This document shows, in pieces, positions 1 to 62,470 of a stretch of DNA of 64,000 nucleotides. The notes under the pieces were generated by a model. That model saw nothing but the letters and a program-made list of their open reading frames with translations, had not been told where the DNA came from and ran no database searches. The DNA comes from a virus, in IMG/VR virus record IMGVR_UViG_3300002180_000002, one strand, 5' to 3'. Made by a program: the position numbers and the translations under genes. The first letter of the stretch is position 1. The number at the start of each line of letters is the position of its first letter.

Positions 1-142
1 ATATATGTAATGGTAATTTTGAAGAAAATAAAGAACTACAACCTCACAACGTTGATAGTTTAAAACAGGCAAGCTTAATATTAACTATATTTTTATGGCT
101 TGCGGATTATATCGTATTACAAATTAAATTAAATAAAGACAC

Positions 143-460
143 ATGAACAGAGCAACATTATTAGGAAACATAGGGAATGACCCTGAAATTATCAATCTTG
201 AAAGCGGTAGTAAAATCGCTAAATTCAGTCTAGCTACAAACAAAAGCTATAAAAACGCTCAAGGTGAAAAAGTGAACGAAACTCAATGGCACAACATTGT
301 GTGCTTTGGAAAATTGTCTGATGTAGTTGAGCAACACTTTCAGAAAGGGAAGAAAATGCTTGTTGAAGGTGAAATCACTACCCGTAGTTGGGATGATAAA
401 GAAGGTAACAAAAGATATATTACCGAAATCGTTATGTCTAATTTTGAATTCGCAGGATAA
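143..460 (+). CDS. ssb: single-stranded DNA-binding protein (OB-fold core only, no acidic C-terminal tip)
   Basis: 105-aa ORF. MNRATLLGNIGNDPE... and ...TQWHNIVCFGKLSD... fit the bacterial/phage SSB OB-fold pattern. It ends SNFEFAG, without a D-D-(I/L)-P-F tail. Confidence 0.85.
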   Translation: MNRATLLGNIGNDPEIINLESGSKIAKFSLATNKSYKNAQGEKVNETQWHNIVCFGKLSDVVEQHFQKGKKMLVEGEITTRSWDDKEGNKRYITEIVMSNFEFAG

Positions 461-1452
461 TGGATGATTTAAAAGAAGAAAAAACCGTCAGGGAAGAAGT
501 GATTGACGATCTAATGAATAAAAAGATTCGTTTAAGTTATTCTGCTTTAAAGAATTTCACCTCCCCAATTAACTTAGTTAACTACTACGTTAAAAAAAGA
601 ACGCAACAGAAAGTCCAAACTCCTGCTATGTTGGAGGGAATCGCTTCGGATGTTTATCTACTTGAACCTCATAATTATGAAAGTAAAATAGAGGTTATAG
701 ATAAAGTTCCTACTACAGCTATTCAGGTTGGATTTACTCAAGACCTTTTGCTTTCAATTAAAGATCAAGAAATTTCCGATGAATTAATTCAGAAAGCATA
801 CAGCAATCACTATTCAAAAGGAACTCCTGATAAAATATATGAGTCCTTAAAACCATATATCAACGCTACTTCATTAGGAAAAACTATTATTGATAGCGCT
901 ACAGATAAAAGAGTGAAAGAACTCACTGACGCTCTTAATATGCAAATGGATGTATCATTATTAATGTCGCGCATATCCTCGGTACAAAAGCGTTTAGAAT
1001 GGCAGGACGAAGGTTGGGATTTTATTGCTTATCTTGACATGGAGCTTGAAGAAGAAGATATTTGTGATGTAAAGAGGACTAAAGATGCCGAACCTGATTT
1101 TTTTGAAAGAGATATTAGGTATAATAAGTATTATTTTCAAGGAGGAATGTATTGCTACGCTTACTATTTATTATATGGGAAATTACCCAACTATACCTTA
1201 TTAGCGTATGACACTACGTCTAATTATGATATATTTAAGCTTGATTATGGGTATATCCAGTATGGAATTACTGAATATAGGTATAAATTAGAGCAGTTAA
1301 ATAAAGCAATAAAAACAAATTCATTTTGGAAATCTTACGGATTTTTTAAGCCTGATAGACAGGTTTACAAACCTAAGTGGGTTCAAGGATTTGAATTAGA
1401 AAAGCCAATGAAAAAGCTTTATAAAAACACATATCAAGAACCAAAAAATTAA
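460..1452 (+). CDS. PD-(D/E)XK (RecB/Cas4-like) nuclease
   Basis: 330-aa ORF coupled to ssb through a TAATG junction. Motifs LSYSALKNF, AYLD, CDVK (D...D/ExK) and QGGMY (QxxxY) are present. Confidence 0.6.
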   Translation: MDDLKEEKTVREEVIDDLMNKKIRLSYSALKNFTSPINLVNYYVKKRTQQKVQTPAMLEGIASDVYLLEPHNYESKIEVIDKVPTTAIQVGFTQDLLLSIKDQEISDELIQKAYSNHYSKGTPDKIYESLKPYINATSLGKTIIDSATDKRVKELTDALNMQMDVSLLMSRISSVQKRLEWQDEGWDFIAYLDMELEEEDICDVKRTKDAEPDFFERDIRYNKYYFQGGMYCYAYYLLYGKLPNYTLLAYDTTSNYDIFKLDYGYIQYGITEYRYKLEQLNKAIKTNSFWKSYGFFKPDRQVYKPKWVQGFELEKPMKKLYKNTYQEPKN

Positions 1453-1482
1453 ATAAAATGACTTGTAGATATTTTGAATAAA

Positions 1483-1716
1483 TGCGTTTGGACGAGGGTT
1501 CGACTCCCTCCGACTCCACATTCTTTGAATCGCCGTTTAAAGTTTAGTGTGGTAGACACTATATTCTACCTTTTTAGGGGTCGCTTGGTTTTGACAGCGC
1601 ACAGAAGCATTATGGAGAGTTGTTTAACTATAACTTCAAAAGTTATAAACTTTTTCCCTGCACCGCTTAGAGCAGTAGCATAGAAACGCTTGGGGGAGCG
1701 ACATCCCCCTTTTATT
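1483..1716 (+). ncRNA. ssrA: circularly permuted (two-piece) tmRNA-like gene
   Basis: The 3' part comes first: TGGAC-GAGGG-TTCGACT-CCCTC-CGACTCC-A (1489-1518). The 5' part GGGGTCGCTTGGTTTTGAC starts at 1577. The acceptor pairs over 7 bp with G3:U70. AGCGCA (1596-1601) pairs with TGCGTT (1483-1488). A frame ends ...LRAVA-TAG (1681-1683) and an intrinsic terminator follows. Confidence 0.6.
1692..1716 (+). terminator. intrinsic terminator closing the tmRNA-like gene
   Basis: GGGGGA-GCGACA-TCCCCC hairpin followed by TTTTATT. Confidence 0.7.
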
Positions 1717-1726
1717 GAAATAAAAT

Positions 1727-1981
1727 ATGAGTAAATTAAAACCAACCCTTAAGGAAGTATTACGAGAAGATCAGCCATGGGCTTTAAAAGACTTGTTAGA
1801 AAAACTTATTGAATTTCCTAAAGGAAAATATAAGCATTTTAGAAAATCAATAACAAGACCTCTTAAAAAATGGTCGCCTATGAAATGGTTTGGATATACT
1901 CATATAAATAAAATGTTAGGATGTGGAGAAGACCGATATATTTCTAAACTTAGGTTCTTTAAATATATTCCAAGAAATTAG
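1727..1981 (+). CDS. hypothetical protein
   Basis: 84-aa ORF directly after the terminator; no recognisable motif. Confidence 0.45.
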   Translation: MSKLKPTLKEVLREDQPWALKDLLEKLIEFPKGKYKHFRKSITRPLKKWSPMKWFGYTHINKMLGCGEDRYISKLRFFKYIPRN

Positions 1982-2063
1982 ATTTGGCTTAATAGCAGAG
2001 CCACTTAATTAGAAATCTGCTAATATTTTAAATAAAAAAGCCTTTAAGAGAGGTAAAACAATT

Positions 2064-2606
2064 ATGAAGAAAATATTAATATTATTAATGTTGCCAATGC
2101 TATTTATAGCTTGCCAAAAAGAAACTGTAGATGAAACTATAGTCAATCTAAAAAAAGACGCTCCTGAATTATTAGAAGCTAAAAAAAACCAAGAACAAAC
2201 AATTATTGATGTAAGTAAAATTGATTTTACAGAAACAAAGTATGATGAAGCGCGTAAAGTGTTTAAAAATATGTTACATAGTGAAAATCAAGTATTATTT
2301 ATAATAAACGTTAAAGATGAAGTGTCTTGGAAAGAGTATTTATTTTATAAATATGCTACTACATTTGTAAATGAGTTTACAGAAACAAATAATCAGCTTA
2401 GATACCATAAAGACAGTAAAACAATATATTTAGCTAATTCACAAACTAATCAAATTAATACAGATATAGACTATCAAGAAAGTCTTCAAGAACGTGCAAA
2501 TTGCGCTTGGGTATGTAATGATTGTCCTGCTGATGGCACTTGCTTATATATGTGGGTGCATCAATGTAGATGTTGTGTGTACCAGTGTTGTCATAACGAA
2601 GAATAA
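2064..2606 (+). CDS. lipoprotein with cysteine-rich C-terminus
   Basis: Signal peptide with lipobox MKKILILLMLPMLFIAC. The last ~45 aa carry 12 Cys (CAWVCNDCPADGTCLYMWVHQCRCCVYQCC). A 10-bp hairpin (2633-2662) follows. Confidence 0.6.
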   Translation: MKKILILLMLPMLFIACQKETVDETIVNLKKDAPELLEAKKNQEQTIIDVSKIDFTETKYDEARKVFKNMLHSENQVLFIINVKDEVSWKEYLFYKYATTFVNEFTETNNQLRYHKDSKTIYLANSQTNQINTDIDYQESLQERANCAWVCNDCPADGTCLYMWVHQCRCCVYQCCHNEE

Positions 2607-2676
2607 ATAAAGTACTTAAAAATTAATAATTATTACCCTTATTATATAAATGATAAGGGTAAATTAAACTATTGGA

Positions 2677-3093
2677 ATGGAAATTTACATTCAAAGACGG
2701 CTTGATAATACATTTAATATTCCTTATTCATCAGATCATGATAAATTAAAACATATTAAAGTAGATGATATTGTTTTATGTAAAATTACTAAACCTAGAA
2801 ATATAGGACATCATAAAAAGTTCTTCACTTTAATTGAGTTTGTTTTTCAAAATCAAGAAGCTTATAATAATAGAGAACACTTGCGTAGGGATTTAACTAT
2901 TGAAGCAGGGTTTTATGATGAACATCTTAATTTTTGGAAAGAAAAAGTAAAAGAAGCAAAAAGCATTTCTTTTGCTAAAATGGATCAAATAGAGTTTCAA
3001 AAATTCTACTCAAGATTTATTGATGCTATTAATAGAGTTTATGGTTTTGATAAACATGATATGCTTGAAAATATAGATCAGTATTACTCATAA
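2677..3093 (+). CDS. hypothetical protein
   Basis: 138-aa ORF. The KPRNIGHHKKFFTLIEFVF segment resembles conserved phage proteins of unknown function, but I cannot name the family with confidence. Confidence 0.5.
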   Translation: MEIYIQRRLDNTFNIPYSSDHDKLKHIKVDDIVLCKITKPRNIGHHKKFFTLIEFVFQNQEAYNNREHLRRDLTIEAGFYDEHLNFWKEKVKEAKSISFAKMDQIEFQKFYSRFIDAINRVYGFDKHDMLENIDQYYS

Positions 3094-3411
3094 ATGACAG
3101 GTGATGGGGAATATATAATTATTGGTGTAAACTCTAAAAACAAAGAGAAAGCTATTATTGCTCTTTCTAAAGAAGGTATTGGAATTGAACTTTTTAGGGG
3201 ATTAAAACTTAATATTAAGGCTTCATTTAACTCTATACTTCCTTATTATAATCCATCATTTAATGAAGATGAAAAGTTTATTTCTGATTGTTTTAAAGTT
3301 TTTAAGTATAATAATTCTGTCGAAGTATTTAACTCACTTGATTGTGAAAGAAAAACAGGAATCACAAGGTATCATTGTAATAAAATATATGATAAATATT
3401 TAAAAGAATAA
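3094..3411 (+). CDS. hypothetical protein
   Basis: 105-aa ORF abutting the previous stop (TAAATG). Confidence 0.45.
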   Translation: MTGDGEYIIIGVNSKNKEKAIIALSKEGIGIELFRGLKLNIKASFNSILPYYNPSFNEDEKFISDCFKVFKYNNSVEVFNSLDCERKTGITRYHCNKIYDKYLKE

Positions 3412-3416
3412 TAATA

Positions 3417-3977
3417 ATGTTAGAATTTTTATTAAAATGTAAATATTACAATAAATCATTAAATGCTTTTTCAGGGTATTTTAATGTTGATATTATAGAT
3501 ATTGAATTTATGTATAATCACTTTCTAAACACAAAAGAGTACCTCTTAGATGATTATGTAGAATTAATACATTTATCTTGGGAGGTTGATAAAAATACTT
3601 TCTACAATAAAGAAGAATTAGATTCATTTTGTAGAAAACAATCTAAATTTAGAAAACTTAACTTTTTAGATTATGATATATTAAGCGCTTGTAGATTAAA
3701 AATAAAACAATCAAGAAATTATTTAGTAAAATATAATGAATATTTAAGTCAAAAACCAAGAAAATATGCACAAGCTTTTATATCTAAAAAAAATATAAGA
3801 GAATTTATTTTTAAACGAGACAATTATATGTGTTTATCCTGCGGTAGCTTACATAAATTAACCATAGATCATATACAATCTATTTATTCAGGAGGTTTAA
3901 ATAGATTGTATAACTTACAAACGTTATGTGGTAGTTGTAATTCAAGCAAATCTACTAAATATATAGATTACAGATAA
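3417..3977 (+). CDS. HNH endonuclease
   Basis: C-terminal CLSCGS...LTIDHIQSIYSGGLNRLYNLQTLCGSCNSSKS is a CxxC...DH...N...CxxCN HNH signature. Confidence 0.85.
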   Translation: MLEFLLKCKYYNKSLNAFSGYFNVDIIDIEFMYNHFLNTKEYLLDDYVELIHLSWEVDKNTFYNKEELDSFCRKQSKFRKLNFLDYDILSACRLKIKQSRNYLVKYNEYLSQKPRKYAQAFISKKNIREFIFKRDNYMCLSCGSLHKLTIDHIQSIYSGGLNRLYNLQTLCGSCNSSKSTKYIDYR

Positions 3978-4801
3978 TGAGTTGGATTAAAATACATAAA
4001 AAGATTTTGAAGTGGGAATGGTATGATGATATTCCTGTTAGGGTAACTTTTTTCCATTTACTTTTAAAAGCTAATTGGAAAGAAAAACAATGGAAAGGTA
4101 TCACTATTAAAAGGGGGCAAGTATTAACAGGGTCTATTTCTACACCTAAAGAAATAGTTATCTCAAGACAGCAATTTAGACGTGCAATTAAAGTTTTAAT
4201 TTCTAACCAAACAATAACCACAGAGCCAACCAACAGAAATACGTTGATAACCATTGTTAATTATGATGATTATCAAGTTAAAGAAAAGAAAACAACCAAC
4301 AAAAAACCACCTAAACAACCAACAAATAACCAACAGATAACCACTACTAAAGAATATAAAGAATATAAAGAATATAAGAATAAAGAAGACTACATACTTG
4401 TTCTTGATAATATTCTTTTATCTGAAATTGTAATTTCAGACGTGCCTGAAAAATTAAAATTTTATTTTAAAACAGCAAAAAGCTTTCAAGAACTTTTTAT
4501 AAAAAATTTGAAGGACAAAAAATCACCAACCACACATCAAGATAAGGCAAAATTTAAAAGTTATGTTGATCCAGTACGATTAATGTTTGATATAGATAAA
4601 GTTGAAAGAGAACAATTATTAAAAGTTTATAATTTTCTAAATAGCCCTAATTCTGAAAAAGGAGATTTTTCATGGAAAGTAAACATTCTTTCTACAAAAA
4701 AATTAAGAGAAAAATTTCAACAACTTTCTGCAAAAGCAAATACAAGTAATAAATCTACAAATAATTCACAAAAAACATTTTCAAAAAACAGAAACTCATG
4801 A
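3977..4801 (+). CDS. putative replication organizer / winged-helix DNA-binding protein
   Basis: The N-terminus MSWIKIHKKILKWEWYDD...RGQVLTGS...QQFRRAIKVL resembles phage replication-organizer wHTH domains. A DnaC-like ATPase gene follows. Contains a KEYKEYKEYK repeat. Confidence 0.45.
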   Translation: MSWIKIHKKILKWEWYDDIPVRVTFFHLLLKANWKEKQWKGITIKRGQVLTGSISTPKEIVISRQQFRRAIKVLISNQTITTEPTNRNTLITIVNYDDYQVKEKKTTNKKPPKQPTNNQQITTTKEYKEYKEYKNKEDYILVLDNILLSEIVISDVPEKLKFYFKTAKSFQELFIKNLKDKKSPTTHQDKAKFKSYVDPVRLMFDIDKVEREQLLKVYNFLNSPNSEKGDFSWKVNILSTKKLREKFQQLSAKANTSNKSTNNSQKTFSKNRNS

Positions 4802-5721
4802 GTGAAAGGACTAACGAATCTAAAAGAGCGGGTGAAATTATGAGCCAAAAGAGCGGAAAATTGATTGGAAAGAAAAAATACACCGCATTAAAAGCATTAG
4901 GACTTGACGATTTAACAGAAGATTCTATGTATGCGCTTGAGCTACAGTTTCCAAATTTAACCGTAACAAACGCTTTAGAAATGATAAAAGCTTACGAGGA
5001 TAATTTAAGTTATTCTTCCGTATTAAATAATAAATCTGTTCAAGATTATTATAAAGAAATTAATAAACCTGAAATTCCTCAAGAAAAGAAAGAAATGACT
5101 AAAGAATGGTTATGGAATAGGTTTGTAAAAGCGTATTACAAAACAACTGGAAATAAGTTTATTGAAAATAAATATACCGTTGAAAACATCAAACCTTTAA
5201 TCTTATATTTTATTGGAGATTTTGAAGGCTTCTCAAAATGTGCTAATATTTCCACATTATCAAAACCAAGCTTCAAAAAAGGATTATTAATTATTGGAGG
5301 GTATGGAAACGGCAAAACATCTATAATGGATTCATTAGAGATTGCTTTAAGAGGTACTAACGTTTCTTTTAAAGGTTATACAGCGCATGAAATTGTAGCT
5401 ATGTATGATGCTATTAAAGATACTTATGATAAAGACTCTTTTAATAAAATTACAGAACAAGGAACTAGGTGTTTTGATGATGTTTTAACAGAAAAAATCG
5501 CAAGTAATTACGGTAAAGTAGATATATTCCAATTAATTTTTGAAAAAAGATATAATAATAACGCTAGAACATATATTACTATCAATTTTGATGATGATTT
5601 TCCTAATGATGTGGATAAAGCATTAGATCAACTAGGATTAAGGTATGGAGGAAGGGTTTATGATAGGATTTTTGCTATGTGGAATATTATTATTTTTAAA
5701 GGAGATAGTTTTAGAAAATAA
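4798..5721 (+). CDS. DnaC/IstB-like AAA+ ATPase (putative helicase loader)
   Basis: Walker A GGYGNGKTS and Walker B-like RCFDDV. ATGA overlap with the upstream gene. Confidence 0.6.
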   Translation: MSERTNESKRAGEIMSQKSGKLIGKKKYTALKALGLDDLTEDSMYALELQFPNLTVTNALEMIKAYEDNLSYSSVLNNKSVQDYYKEINKPEIPQEKKEMTKEWLWNRFVKAYYKTTGNKFIENKYTVENIKPLILYFIGDFEGFSKCANISTLSKPSFKKGLLIIGGYGNGKTSIMDSLEIALRGTNVSFKGYTAHEIVAMYDAIKDTYDKDSFNKITEQGTRCFDDVLTEKIASNYGKVDIFQLIFEKRYNNNARTYITINFDDDFPNDVDKALDQLGLRYGGRVYDRIFAMWNIIIFKGDSFRK

Positions 5722-5774
5722 GTAATTTTATATAAAAAATAAAAACATATAGCGTTAAATAATATATTTATACT

Positions 5775-5782
5775 TATATTTG
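5775..5782 (+). promoter_or_regulatory. Bacteroidetes-type -7 promoter element (TAtaTTTG)
   Basis: Perfect TAnnTTTG ending 4 nt before the ATG at 5787. This implies a leaderless or near-leaderless mRNA. Confidence 0.4.
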
Positions 5783-5786
5783 AAAT

Positions 5787-6086
5787 ATGAAACATAAAGT
5801 TGACTTTGGTAGAGCGATTAAGTTCGTTAGAGAAAAAAAAGGGTTAAATCAAGAACAGCTTGGAAATAAAGTTGATTCTAATCAACCATACATATCACAA
5901 ATCGAAAGAGGTGTGTTCAATCCATCTATTAAGTTTATTGAGAAAATATGCAAGGCGCTTAATATTCCTTTTGTTTTTATGGTATGGCACTCAATGACAG
6001 AGGAAAATATTTCAGAAGAAAAAAGAGAAGCGTTTAAAATGTTAAAGCCATCTATTGATAATATTTTTAATGATCTTTTAAAATAA
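5787..6086 (+). CDS. XRE-family helix-turn-helix transcriptional regulator
   Basis: FGRAIKFVREKKGLNQEQLGNKVDSNQPYISQIERGVFNPSIKFIEKICKALNIP is a classic HTH_XRE domain. Confidence 0.85.
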   Translation: MKHKVDFGRAIKFVREKKGLNQEQLGNKVDSNQPYISQIERGVFNPSIKFIEKICKALNIPFVFMVWHSMTEENISEEKREAFKMLKPSIDNIFNDLLK

Positions 6087-57893: not shown

Positions 57894-57991
57894 CCTAAAA
57901 AAATGCACCGCGAAACAGGATAACGTCAAGGTAATTTAAACCTATCTAATAAACTGTATGACGGTGCATACCATTATTTCTATCTTACTAG

Positions 57992-58063
57992 AAGCGAGAA
58001 AGGGAATCGAACCCTTGCATAGCGGTTTTGCAGACCGCCGTGTTTCCACTTCACCATTTCGCC
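57992..58063 (-). tRNA. tRNA-Cys (anticodon GCA)
   Basis: Reverse complement: GGCGAAA-TG-GTGAAGTGGAAACAC-G-GCGGT-CTGCAAA-ACCGC-TATGC-AAGGG-TTCGATT-CCCTT-TCTCGCT-T. It forms a cloverleaf with discriminator U73. The acceptor stem has one A:C mismatch and one G:U pair. Confidence 0.7.
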
Positions 58064-60310: not shown

Positions 60311-60592
60311 ATGACATTTACAAACAAACTTAGATTATTATTTTTAGTAGTGATTCTTTTCGGCTTCACTTATTCAGCAACGGCGCAAGAACCTGCGTAC
60401 AAAATTGTAGGCAGTGAGATAGTTAAGACCTCAACGGAGCGCGTGAAGGTTGCGCCAGTGAAGACAGAATACACTCATACGATTAAGGGTGTAGTTTATC
60501 CAGTGTACAAAGGTGCGAAGGGTGGCTACTTCATTAAGCGCGTGAGCAAGAAGACGGGCAAGGAATACAAGCAGTATTTAAAACTCGACTAA
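60311..60592 (+). CDS. secreted basic hypothetical protein
   Basis: Signal peptide MTFTNKLRLLFLVVILFGFTYSATAQ. Confidence 0.5.
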   Translation: MTFTNKLRLLFLVVILFGFTYSATAQEPAYKIVGSEIVKTSTERVKVAPVKTEYTHTIKGVVYPVYKGAKGGYFIKRVSKKTGKEYKQYLKLD

Positions 60593-60594
60593 GC

Positions 60595-60654
60595 GAGGTT
60601 AAACAGGCATTAGGCTTAGAGCGTCCGCACTACTTTGGTGCGGGGTTGTAACAA
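60595..60654 (+). promoter_or_regulatory. intergenic repeated hairpin element, copy 1
   Basis: TTAAACAGGCATTAGGC...AGCGT-CCGCAC-TACTTTG-GTGCGG-GGTTGTAACAA, ending 17 nt before the next ATG. Confidence 0.55.
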
Positions 60655-60865: not shown

Positions 60866-61162
60866 ATGAAAGTAAACGCTATAACAAAATATATCTTTAA
60901 AGGTAAAGAGTATAATTCCTTACAAGAGATAAAAGAAGAAATACATAATACTATTGGTTTAGAAGTATTGGATAAAGTTTCTAAAACTTGCCCACTTGAA
61001 AAACACAAAGACTATTTTAAATTATTAGAATTATTGTGTAGTAAAGAAGTCAGAGAAATTTTAACAGAATGTTTTAACGTAAATTTTGACGAACCTATTA
61101 CAGATTATGACGATAATTGTTTCAATGAAAACACTAAAGAAATTAATGTTTTAGATATATAA
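60866..61162 (+). CDS. hypothetical protein
   Basis: 98-aa ORF preceded by a 9-bp-stem hairpin (60795-60803/60835-60843). Confidence 0.45.
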   Translation: MKVNAITKYIFKGKEYNSLQEIKEEIHNTIGLEVLDKVSKTCPLEKHKDYFKLLELLCSKEVREILTECFNVNFDEPITDYDDNCFNENTKEINVLDI

Positions 61163-61176
61163 GTCGGTCGGGCGAC

Positions 61177-61240
61177 ATTAAACAGGCATTAAGCCCGAAG
61201 CGTTGCGGACGATTTCTCCCTAGTCCGCAGGTTGTAACAA
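61177..61240 (+). promoter_or_regulatory. intergenic repeated hairpin element, copy 2
   Basis: ATTAAACAGGCATTAAGC...AGCGT-TGCGGAC-...-GTCCGCA-GGTTGTAACAA, ending 19 nt before the ATG at 61260. Confidence 0.55.
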
Positions 61241-62389: not shown

Positions 62390-62410
62390 TTGAAAGAGGT
62401 TGCGACCTCT

Positions 62411-62470
62411 TAAAAAAGGTTATTAAGTCGCAAGCGTTCCCGCTCATATTGGGCGGGAGGTTAACAACAA
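62411..62470 (+). promoter_or_regulatory. intergenic repeated hairpin element, copy 3 (diverged)
   Basis: AAAAAGGTTATTAAGTC...AGCGT-TCCCGC-...-GCGGGA-GGTTAACAACAA, ending 12 nt before the ATG at 62483. Confidence 0.5.

Follow-up and report, generated by a model that had tools for sequence, protein, structure and literature searches.

The locus at 1483–1716 of IMG/VR virus record IMGVR_UViG_3300002180_000002 raises the question of whether a phage carries a transfer-messenger RNA (tmRNA) gene, ssrA, in permuted order, with the segment for the 3' end of the RNA placed before the segment for its 5' end. The 64,000 nucleotides analyzed are referred to as the window. The original prediction, made from these letters alone, was a phage-borne, circularly permuted, two-piece tmRNA gene, and it is upheld by a covariance-model score above threshold, by covariation, and by a conserved tag. 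The stretch from about 1456 to 1716 on the plus strand is very probably a circularly permuted ssrA gene in a marine, lytic-type phage of Bacteroidota with Tenacibaculum phage Gundel_1 as a relative. The case is built on four things that can be read from the sequence and its relatives: the anatomy of the gene, covariation, a coding signature in the tag, and the lack of an integrase.

The permuted order is found on one strand, where the tmRNA 3' end at 1489–1518 is followed by a 58-nt spacer and then by a 5' half that begins with GGGGTCGCTTGGTTTTGAC at 1577–1595. The spacer had been put at 59 nt, and its actual extent is 1519–1576. This layout pattern matched once in the window compared to 0.00 times in 100 shuffles. 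In the covariance-model search proposed with the original prediction, the Rfam model RF04321 (tmRNA_permuted) matched 1461–1670 with 52.1 bits (E 2.6e-7 for the whole window), which is above its curated gathering score of 47. On the local stretch 1380–1780 the score was 53.2 bits (E 9e-10). The RF00023 model matched only through its 3' part (model positions 218–374) at 43.9 bits, under its gathering score of 47. This 3' part was the best tmRNA-clan match, ahead of the alpha, beta, and cyano models, and its UGUAGA motif is matched by the acceptor piece. The one-piece order (5' end, pseudoknot PK1, tag, PK2–4, 3' end) does not apply because the 5' end lies downstream of the RF00023 match. The elements listed in the original prediction (GGAC, T arm, acceptor strands, helix 2, hairpin, frame, and terminator) were all located where it had placed them. 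The features of the gene are as follows.

1456–1518, plus strand: 3' half (acceptor piece), from the RF04321 alignment, the RF00023 3'-part match, and co-folding
1456–1464, plus strand: distal helix-2 strand AAATGACTT, predicted to pair with 1617–1625, from the co-folding minimum free energy (MFE) structure and duplex energies
1483–1488, plus strand: helix 2a strand TGCGTT, pairing with AGCGCA at 1596–1601, from covariation
1494–1510, plus strand: T arm, stem GAGGG/CCCTC and loop TTCGACT, from the sequence and RF04321
1511–1518, plus strand: 3' acceptor strand CGACTCC (1511–1517) and discriminator A1518, from the sequence and covariation
1519–1576, plus strand: spacer of 58 nt with two hairpins, from folding (MFE z = -2.1)
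1577–1716, plus strand: 5' half (coding piece), from the sequence, RF04321, and co-folding
1577–1583, plus strand: 5' acceptor strand GGGGTCG, from the sequence and covariation
1596–1601, plus strand: helix 2a strand AGCGCA, from covariation
1617–1625, plus strand: distal helix-2 strand GAGTTGTTT, from co-folding and duplex energies
1629–1647, plus strand: hairpin TATAACTT-CAA-AAGTTATA of 8 bp with the resume codon at its loop, from the sequence and co-folding
1636–1683, plus strand: tag reading frame from TCA (1636–1638) to TAG (1681–1683), from homology to locus L007, the context shared with phage cr125_1, and codon entropy
1659–1680, plus strand: helix-5-like hairpin on the LRAVA codons with inner stem GCT/AGC, from co-folding
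1692–1716, plus strand: intrinsic-terminator-like hairpin GGGGGAGCGACATCCCCC and T run, from folding (hairpin proper 1692–1709)

Within the acceptor piece, a leader strand for helix 2 is followed by the T arm, the 3' acceptor strand, and the discriminator A. After A1518 the next bases are ACAT, so that CCA is incompletely encoded. Inspection of the sequence places a bulged U1489 at helix 2a and GGAC at 1490–1493. The coding piece starts with the 5' acceptor strand, continues through a D-loop analogue (with GAC at its end) and the helix-2 strands to the tag frame, and finishes in the terminator; terminator-like hairpins with AGCGA(A/C)A loops are also present in relatives. The acceptor stem GGGGTCG/CGACTCC has 7 bp including G3:U70, which with the discriminator A corresponds to alanine identity. 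An RNase P site is presumed at the 5' side of the 1577–1583 strand, and by analogy with other permuted genes the spacer would be an intervening segment to be removed. The distal helix formed by 1456–1464 and 1617–1625 implies that the RNA starts at or before about 1456, so the start at 1483 in the original prediction holds for the elements it covered and falls short of the full extent. The modeled 5' end of the acceptor piece near 1456 lies four bases past the stop codon (1450–1452) of the upstream open reading frame (ORF). A mechanical 69-amino-acid ORF at 1474–1683 on the plus strand, with a TTG start, spans the tmRNA gene in the tag frame and ends at the same TAG.

Relatives of the gene were collected by similarity and by layout. 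In BLASTN searches the 3' half resembled annotated tmRNAs of crAss-like phages, Chryseobacterium phage MA9V-3, and Cellulophaga phages. ARAGORN and Rfam identify the cr125_1 and MA9V-3 genes as permuted and the Cellulophaga phage Calle gene as a standard one-piece tmRNA. Five IMG/VR contigs contain an exact 29-mer of the window, and permuted genes are present in two of them (loci L004 and L007, the latter on a 79.9-kb contig). The layout pattern was found in 85 IMG/VR contigs with a 30–60 nt spacer and in at least 120 further contigs with a 61–91 nt spacer. ARAGORN called a permuted tmRNA at 168 of the 207 pattern-matched loci. The 39 candidates it missed are mostly of the window's tag class, and phage catalogues built with ARAGORN probably under-count this clade.

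Covariation was scored in the 24 relatives that share the window's helix-2 register, using a 64-column alignment made on fixed anchors with pairing ignored. The acceptor, T, and helix 2a stems had 98.6% of their cells paired compared to 48–61% when the partners were slid, so the pairing expected by the original prediction is borne out. Double-change cells numbered 81 against 22.7 in shuffles, and none of 500 shuffles reached 81. Acceptor pairs 4–7 are kept through compensatory changes, with four Watson-Crick types at pairs 5–7, and the T stem is 100% paired with two covarying pairs. In helix 2a three pairs vary with 8–10 double changes each, and the choice of the subset fixed the three pairs closest to the tRNA-like domain (GTT of GTTT with AGC). 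All of the covariation stems from unconstrained positions. L007 has TATGTT/AGCATA at helix 2a where the window has TGCGTT/AGCGCA, a difference of two compensatory pairs.

The outer structures were examined in 22 relatives. Co-folding predicts the added distal helix 1456–1464/1617–1625, and cognate strands are more stable than non-cognate ones (-7.15 compared to -3.86 kcal/mol, permutation p ~5e-5) in narrower test windows that were drawn from the window's own predicted fold and are thus partly post hoc. With wider windows the duplex test was not significant (p = 0.07). For the 22 fused sequences, RNAalifold returned the tRNA-like domain and helix 2a but neither the distal helix nor the resume hairpin. 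The distal helix is well supported but not beyond doubt. The 1629–1647 hairpin had 65% of its cells paired compared to about 33% when slid, and one of its pairs clearly covaries (UA 15, CG 5, UG 2). This pairing signal is not separable from the conserved KVI codons.

The tag read from TCA 1636 is SKVINFFPAPLRAVA, ending at TAG 1681–1683. The resume codon was placed by the ARAGORN-called tag of L007, VKVINLFTPQLRAVA, and by the CAUAACU context common to cr125_1. In the relatives (A)UAAC(U/C) stands directly 5' of the resume codon, which fits the Rfam-consensus tmRNA resume context. The original prediction had noted a frame ending ...PAPLRAVA-TAG, and this frame is conserved as a peptide in the 22 relatives, where the tag class is xK(V/T)I...(P)LR(A/M)(A/V)(A/V). 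Other members of the class are AKVITPSFTQLRAVA, GKTINFSNAPLRAVA, and SKVITLSFAPVRLAA. The last two codons are GCN or GTN throughout, apart from one TCA and one ACC, and their entropies at positions 1, 2, and 3 are 0.27, 0.8–1.0, and 1.65. The tag ends GCA GTA GCA in the window and GCG GTG GCG in L007. A stop codon is in frame in every one of the 22 (TAA 16, TAG 6). At the 1659–1680 hairpin GCUUAGAGC changes to CAUUAAGAAUG in relatives, which accounts for the Ala/Met alternation in the tag. Four tag classes were distinguished among the loci: ANDxxFALAA, ANNIVAFSRQTALV, GNxFVTDYTxLxAA as in crAss-like phages, and the window's own. An alternative frame that ends at the loop UAG 1668–1670, the stop aligned by Rfam, was rejected; it is broken in locus L106, and the codons downstream of this UAG have a coding pattern.

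The coding piece is compact. The coding piece of two-piece tmRNAs typically carries PK1 and PK2 around the tag frame (PMC3985003), and neither is modeled by RF04321. Just 10 nt lie between the end of the distal helix (1625) and the resume codon (1636), and just 8 nt between the stop codon and the terminator hairpin, too little for PK1 or PK2 to fit. In the window the resume codon follows GAC by 40 nt. This distance is 38–46 nt (median 42) in permuted genes with TTTGAC, including those of crAss-like phages, compared to a median of 66 nt in the collected TTCGAC permuted genes and about 75 nt in Bacteroidota one-piece genes.

The genomic setting is that of a phage. The window has a G+C content of about 30%, and its large ORFs match phage structural proteins, terminase, and portal protein. 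Among isolates, Tenacibaculum phage Gundel_1 (a podovirus of the Pachyviridae) is closest, with 55% identity over a 462-amino-acid structural protein, and more distant protein matches are to Cellulophaga and Flavobacterium phages. The tmRNA gene is flanked by genes for SSB and a PDDEXK-like nuclease on one side and by small ORFs with a NinB-like gene on the other. Synteny around the gene could not be shown, as five ORFs flanking it had no tblastn match in the related loci or in Gundel_1. There was likewise no match in a megablast of window positions 1–6000 against phage genomes or in a search of viral contigs with the flanking 330-amino-acid protein, and exact-protein look-ups of two flanking ORFs returned no record. 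A Pfam scan of the 74 window ORFs together with tblastn found no ClpX-like gene in the window, with about 15 kb of the genome lying outside it.

Other elements were noted in this phage and its relatives. Three Pistol ribozymes (RF02679) lie on the plus strand at 60583–60650, 61162–61236, and 62395–62465, within 2 kb among small ORFs, with scores of 69.5, 62.2, and 54.1 bits against a gathering score of 34.5. Gundel_1 has one Pistol ribozyme (L213 2564–2642, 65.6 bits). The only tRNA gene in the window is a tRNA-Cys (GCA) at 57991–58063 on the minus strand, and Gundel_1 has ten tRNAs on its plus strand. Single window ORFs match Tad6 (a type I Thoeris inhibitor, E 1.6e-33), a PNKP phosphatase domain (E 1.8e-28), NinG, and GIY-YIG/NUMOD3 homing-endonuclease motifs. 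The combination of anti-defence, RNA repair (PNKP), and a tmRNA in one phage may reflect related themes. The cr125_1 locus (L002 1328–1496, NC_055900) has a RAGATH-9 RNA (154 bits) directly upstream that overlaps the annotated tmRNA start, and a partial Hatchet ribozyme match at its edge.

Several observations weigh against a functional permuted tmRNA at this locus. The RF04321 score exceeds the gathering threshold by only 5 bits. ARAGORN, which the original prediction had put forward as a check in permuted mode, fails on this copy; it called no tmRNA here by default or from -ps95 to -ps70, and its sole call in the window is the tRNA-Cys elsewhere. This miss is a property of the tool and not a defining biological feature. 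PK1 is absent, and the Pfam scan of the 74 ORFs found no SmpB. Gundel_1 has no tmRNA at the Rfam gathering thresholds and was reported without one (PMC8776804), which marks the gene as accessory and dispensable for this phage type. Upstream of the gene there is neither a Bacteroidetes -7 box nor a tRNA and no recognizable promoter, and the second spacer hairpin, at 1551–1570 and followed by TTTTT just before the mature 5' end G1577, could end transcription ahead of the coding piece. UCA (Ser) is an unusual resume codon, although one shared by 4 of the 22 relatives, and it lies at the margin of the 8-bp hairpin. At the AVA codons, part of the third-position variation is also compatible with compensatory pairing within the 1659–1680 hairpin. 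Finally, the prediction that acceptor pairing and G3:U70 would be maintained holds for the pairing. G3:U70 is present in every relative, among them cr125_1 and MA9V-3, which came from BLAST searches. In most relatives, however, G1-C72, G2-C71, and G3:U70 were required by the search pattern, and their conservation there is not independent evidence.

These points have to be weighed with four other explanations. The least credible, with a vanishingly small probability, is a chance resemblance or a functionless, degenerate tRNA-like relic. The negative ARAGORN result and an Rfam score near threshold would fit it, and it is refuted by the comparative data, in which a pattern expected 0.00 times has homologues with compensatory changes and a conserved tag. 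Next comes a remnant of integration or excision, of which the original prediction had raised the attP part. The 1489–1518 segment would be an attP copy of a host ssrA 3' end, the 5' half would be a captured host fragment, and there would be no functional RNA. The 3' ends of ssrA genes are classic phage attachment sites (PMC9004378, PMC11915505), and 29–33 nt of the 3' end are identical to the chromosomal ssrA of several Bacteroidota. However, the Pfam scan found no integrase or recombinase family among the 74 window ORFs, and Gundel_1 has no integrase (PMC8776804). Beyond the tRNA-like domain the 5' half is not host-like, with a tag that is SKVINFFPAPLRAVA and not GENNYALAA and with PK1 missing. 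Both halves are present and covary across many phage contigs, and covariation between the halves requires selection on the pairing between the pieces. The attP explanation is largely refuted and very improbable.

A third explanation accepts the RNA and denies the tagging. The molecule would be a decoy that binds SmpB and AlaRS or a tag-less rescuer, and the ORF would be conserved as structure only. It can be likened to the tRNA-like-domain-only (TLD-only) RNA of mycobacteriophage DS6A or to mitochondrial tmRNAs, and DS6A-like molecules inhibit host tmRNA (PMC4131195, PMC11915505). The 1629–1647 and 1659–1680 hairpins overlap the tag, so the KVI and LRA conservation is partly structural, and the PK1 that usually lies 5' of the resume codon is absent. 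Set against this are Ala or Val in the last two codons with a free third position, a stop that is always in frame, a GAC-to-resume distance held at 38–46 nt, and an upstream (A)UAAC(U/C) that is the Rfam-consensus resume context, whereas the alternative frame is not conserved and is broken in L106. We consider an RNA that does not tag improbable. The fourth explanation keeps the gene and divides its expression into two separate transcripts, with the acceptor piece ending at a spacer terminator (1551–1575) and the coding piece having its own promoter. The terminator-like hairpin and T5 at 1551–1575 and a weak sigma-70-like match at 1536–1565 favor this arrangement. A hairpin a few nucleotides before GGGG also recurs in many relatives, where spacers are often structured, and its candidate roles are termination, an RNase P substrate element, or 3'-end protection. 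However, known permuted tmRNA genes give one processed precursor (PMC3985003, PMC11915505), and the sigma-70-like match does not stand out from shuffles (4 found compared to 2.7 expected) and is of a non-Bacteroidetes type. The spacer of one relative seems itself to be a tRNA, which argues for excision by tRNA-processing enzymes. Two separate transcripts are unlikely, though less so than the other three explanations.

The preferred reading is thus a permuted tmRNA gene whose RNA would be processed from one precursor and would tag proteins; its expression, processing, charging, tagging, and benefit to the phage are what we infer from the anatomy and from known tmRNAs. As expected of an expressed tRNA-like gene, many relatives have either a tRNA gene directly upstream or a Bacteroidetes -7 box (TAnnTTTG) located 47–57 nt 5' of the T loop. 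In about eleven relatives (L004, L013, L048, L067, L069, L073, L083, L101, L156, and others) the tmRNA begins a few bases past a tRNA 3' end, and these tmRNAs directly behind tRNA genes belong to phage tRNA arrays. For the window's gene, the simplest guess is transcription by read-through from the upstream SSB/exonuclease genes. The 58-nt spacer would then be cut out by tRNA-processing enzymes, with RNase P cleaving 5' of G1577 and the 3' end being trimmed to A1518 before CCA completion. RNase P and 3'-end processing have been proposed for other permuted tmRNA genes (PMC3985003, PMC11915505). Such excision fits the structured spacers and the relative L114 (IMGVR_UViG_3300029319_000114), where the 90-nt spacer seems to be a complete tRNA-like sequence (GGGGAATTAGCTCAGTTGG...TTCGAATC...CTCCA). 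L114 would be a tRNA nested within a permuted tmRNA gene.

The two pieces, of about 66 nt and 140 nt, would be held together by the acceptor stem, helix 2a, and the distal helix. By analogy with established tmRNA biology, host AlaRS would charge the RNA through G3:U70 and A73, and host SmpB and EF-Tu would bring it to stalled ribosomes. Translation would resume at TCA 1636 and append (A)SKVINFFPAPLRAVA, and tagged peptides would carry A-SKVINFFPAPLRADD. The most likely benefit to the phage would be added ribosome-rescue capacity with a phage-chosen tag during infection.

Close matches to the tRNA-like domain are found in bacterial one-piece genes. The exact 29-mer occurs in 13 genome contigs, 11 of them labelled Bacteroidota (including Flaviramulus, Flavivirga, Flammeovirga, and Vicingus), and all 13 carry one-piece tmRNAs. 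The tags are of the GENNYALAA or GNNSFAMAA type in 12 of the 13, and the remaining Flammeovirga gene has a longer, dissimilar tag by the ARAGORN call. The other two contigs (L215 and L216) are from metagenome-assembled genomes labelled Roseobacteraceae, with one-piece tmRNAs and the tags GEEQYALAA and EKQYALAA, and are probably misbinned. The window matches the Flaviramulus and Flavivirga one-piece tmRNAs at all of the 3' 33 nt and departs from them at 2 positions of the 5' 19 nt. The one-piece tmRNAs of Flavobacteriaceae and of Cellulophaga phages Calle and phi38:1 have a near-identical tRNA-like domain and the same bulged-U register of helix 2a. Unlike the window's gene, they are unpermuted, are 360–400 nt long, contain pseudoknots, and have the resume codon at about position 95. 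The Flavobacteriaceae host tag is GENNYALAA, compared to SKVINFFPAPLRAVA in the window. Judged from the sequences, the tRNA-like domain fits a permutation that arose from a Bacteroidota one-piece form, with host sequences for this comparison chosen by their identity to the window.

The two-piece tmRNAs of alphaproteobacteria, betaproteobacteria, and cyanobacteria, whose models RF01849, RF01850, and RF01851 were merged as RF04321, have the same order, the 7-bp acceptor stem with G3:U70, the T arm, a helix 2 between the pieces, and the tag ORF in the 5' piece. In contrast to them, the window's tRNA-like domain is of the Bacteroidota type (GGNUUUGAC, GUUUGGAC). Known two-piece forms typically have PK1 and PK2 (PMC3985003), whereas the window has no room for either, and its tag is unrelated to their ANDxxxALAA and ANNIVxFxR types. 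Two-piece tmRNAs are also known from phages: a reported set of 18,146 phage genomes yielded 53 unique forms, of which 50 were marine or aquatic (PMC9004378). The two-piece tmRNAs of Melnitz, pelagimyophages, and cyanophages (PMC9004378) resemble the window's in being phage-borne, permuted ssrA genes in marine phages without an integrase. They are of the alpha or cyano type and match the two-piece tmRNA of their present or former hosts, whereas the window's presumed host phylum has one-piece tmRNAs, as judged from 24,380 standard compared to 48 sporadic permuted tmRNA calls in Bacteroidota assemblies (PMC11915505 Table S2). Unlike the marine phage two-piece tmRNAs (PMC9004378), the window's gene has no associated glutamine riboswitch.

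The closest architecture is that of cr125_1 (NC_055900) and MA9V-3 (PV245944). These genes share with the window TTTGAC, the helix-2 register, the CAUAACU context, Bacteroidota hosts, and a resume codon about 40–46 nt after GAC. They differ in their tag classes (GNFYVTDYTRIAA and GNVIDINKYVAKLEVAA) and in their longer spacers (about 170 nt in cr125_1), and ARAGORN detects both but misses the window's gene. The papers covered on these phages contain no discussion of how their tmRNAs are built. The DS6A TLD-only RNA is likewise phage-borne, tmRNA-derived, and without pseudoknots, but it has no tag reading frame (PMC4131195), whereas the window has a conserved one. The original prediction knew of no permuted tmRNA in phages of such hosts, and this is superseded: permuted tmRNAs in phages are already known from marine phages (PMC9004378) and from the GenBank-annotated crAss-like cr125_1 and MA9V-3. 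In the part of the literature on phage two-piece, crAss-like, and Tenacibaculum phage tmRNAs that was covered, no pseudoknot-free architecture, ...PLRAVA class, or independent origin was described.

These comparisons suggest, somewhat short of making it probable, that a separate permuted-tmRNA lineage is confined to phages of Bacteroidota (marine flavobacterial, crAss-like gut, and Chryseobacterium phages). It would have arisen from a host-type one-piece form independently of the alphaproteobacterial, betaproteobacterial, and cyanobacterial permutations. It would have lost all pseudoknots and become the most compact tag-encoding tmRNA, with about 205 nt in two pieces, a resume codon 40 nt from the tRNA-like domain, and phage-specific ...PLRAVA tags. 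A short ClpX-like ATPase of about 270–280 amino acids is encoded in Gundel_1 (L213 7823–8638) and in MA9V-3 (ORF62, PMC13120357), the latter pairing it with a permuted tmRNA.

The finding bears on how such genes are found and on what a tmRNA needs. ARAGORN is the tmRNA finder in most phage annotation pipelines and misses this gene, and the 1474–1683 ORF could be annotated as a hypothetical protein that hides an RNA gene. The 33-nt identity to Flavobacteriaceae ssrA is a clue to the host. A clade without pseudoknots and with a near resume codon is a natural test of what tmRNA needs for frame selection and tagging. A phage tag wholly unlike the host tag raises the question of whether the phage adds rescue capacity only or redirects the tagged proteins; the relatives Gundel_1 and MA9V-3 are among those that encode ClpX-like ATPases. 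If the separate lineage is real, the phage, and not the host, would decide the fate of proteins from rescued ribosomes.

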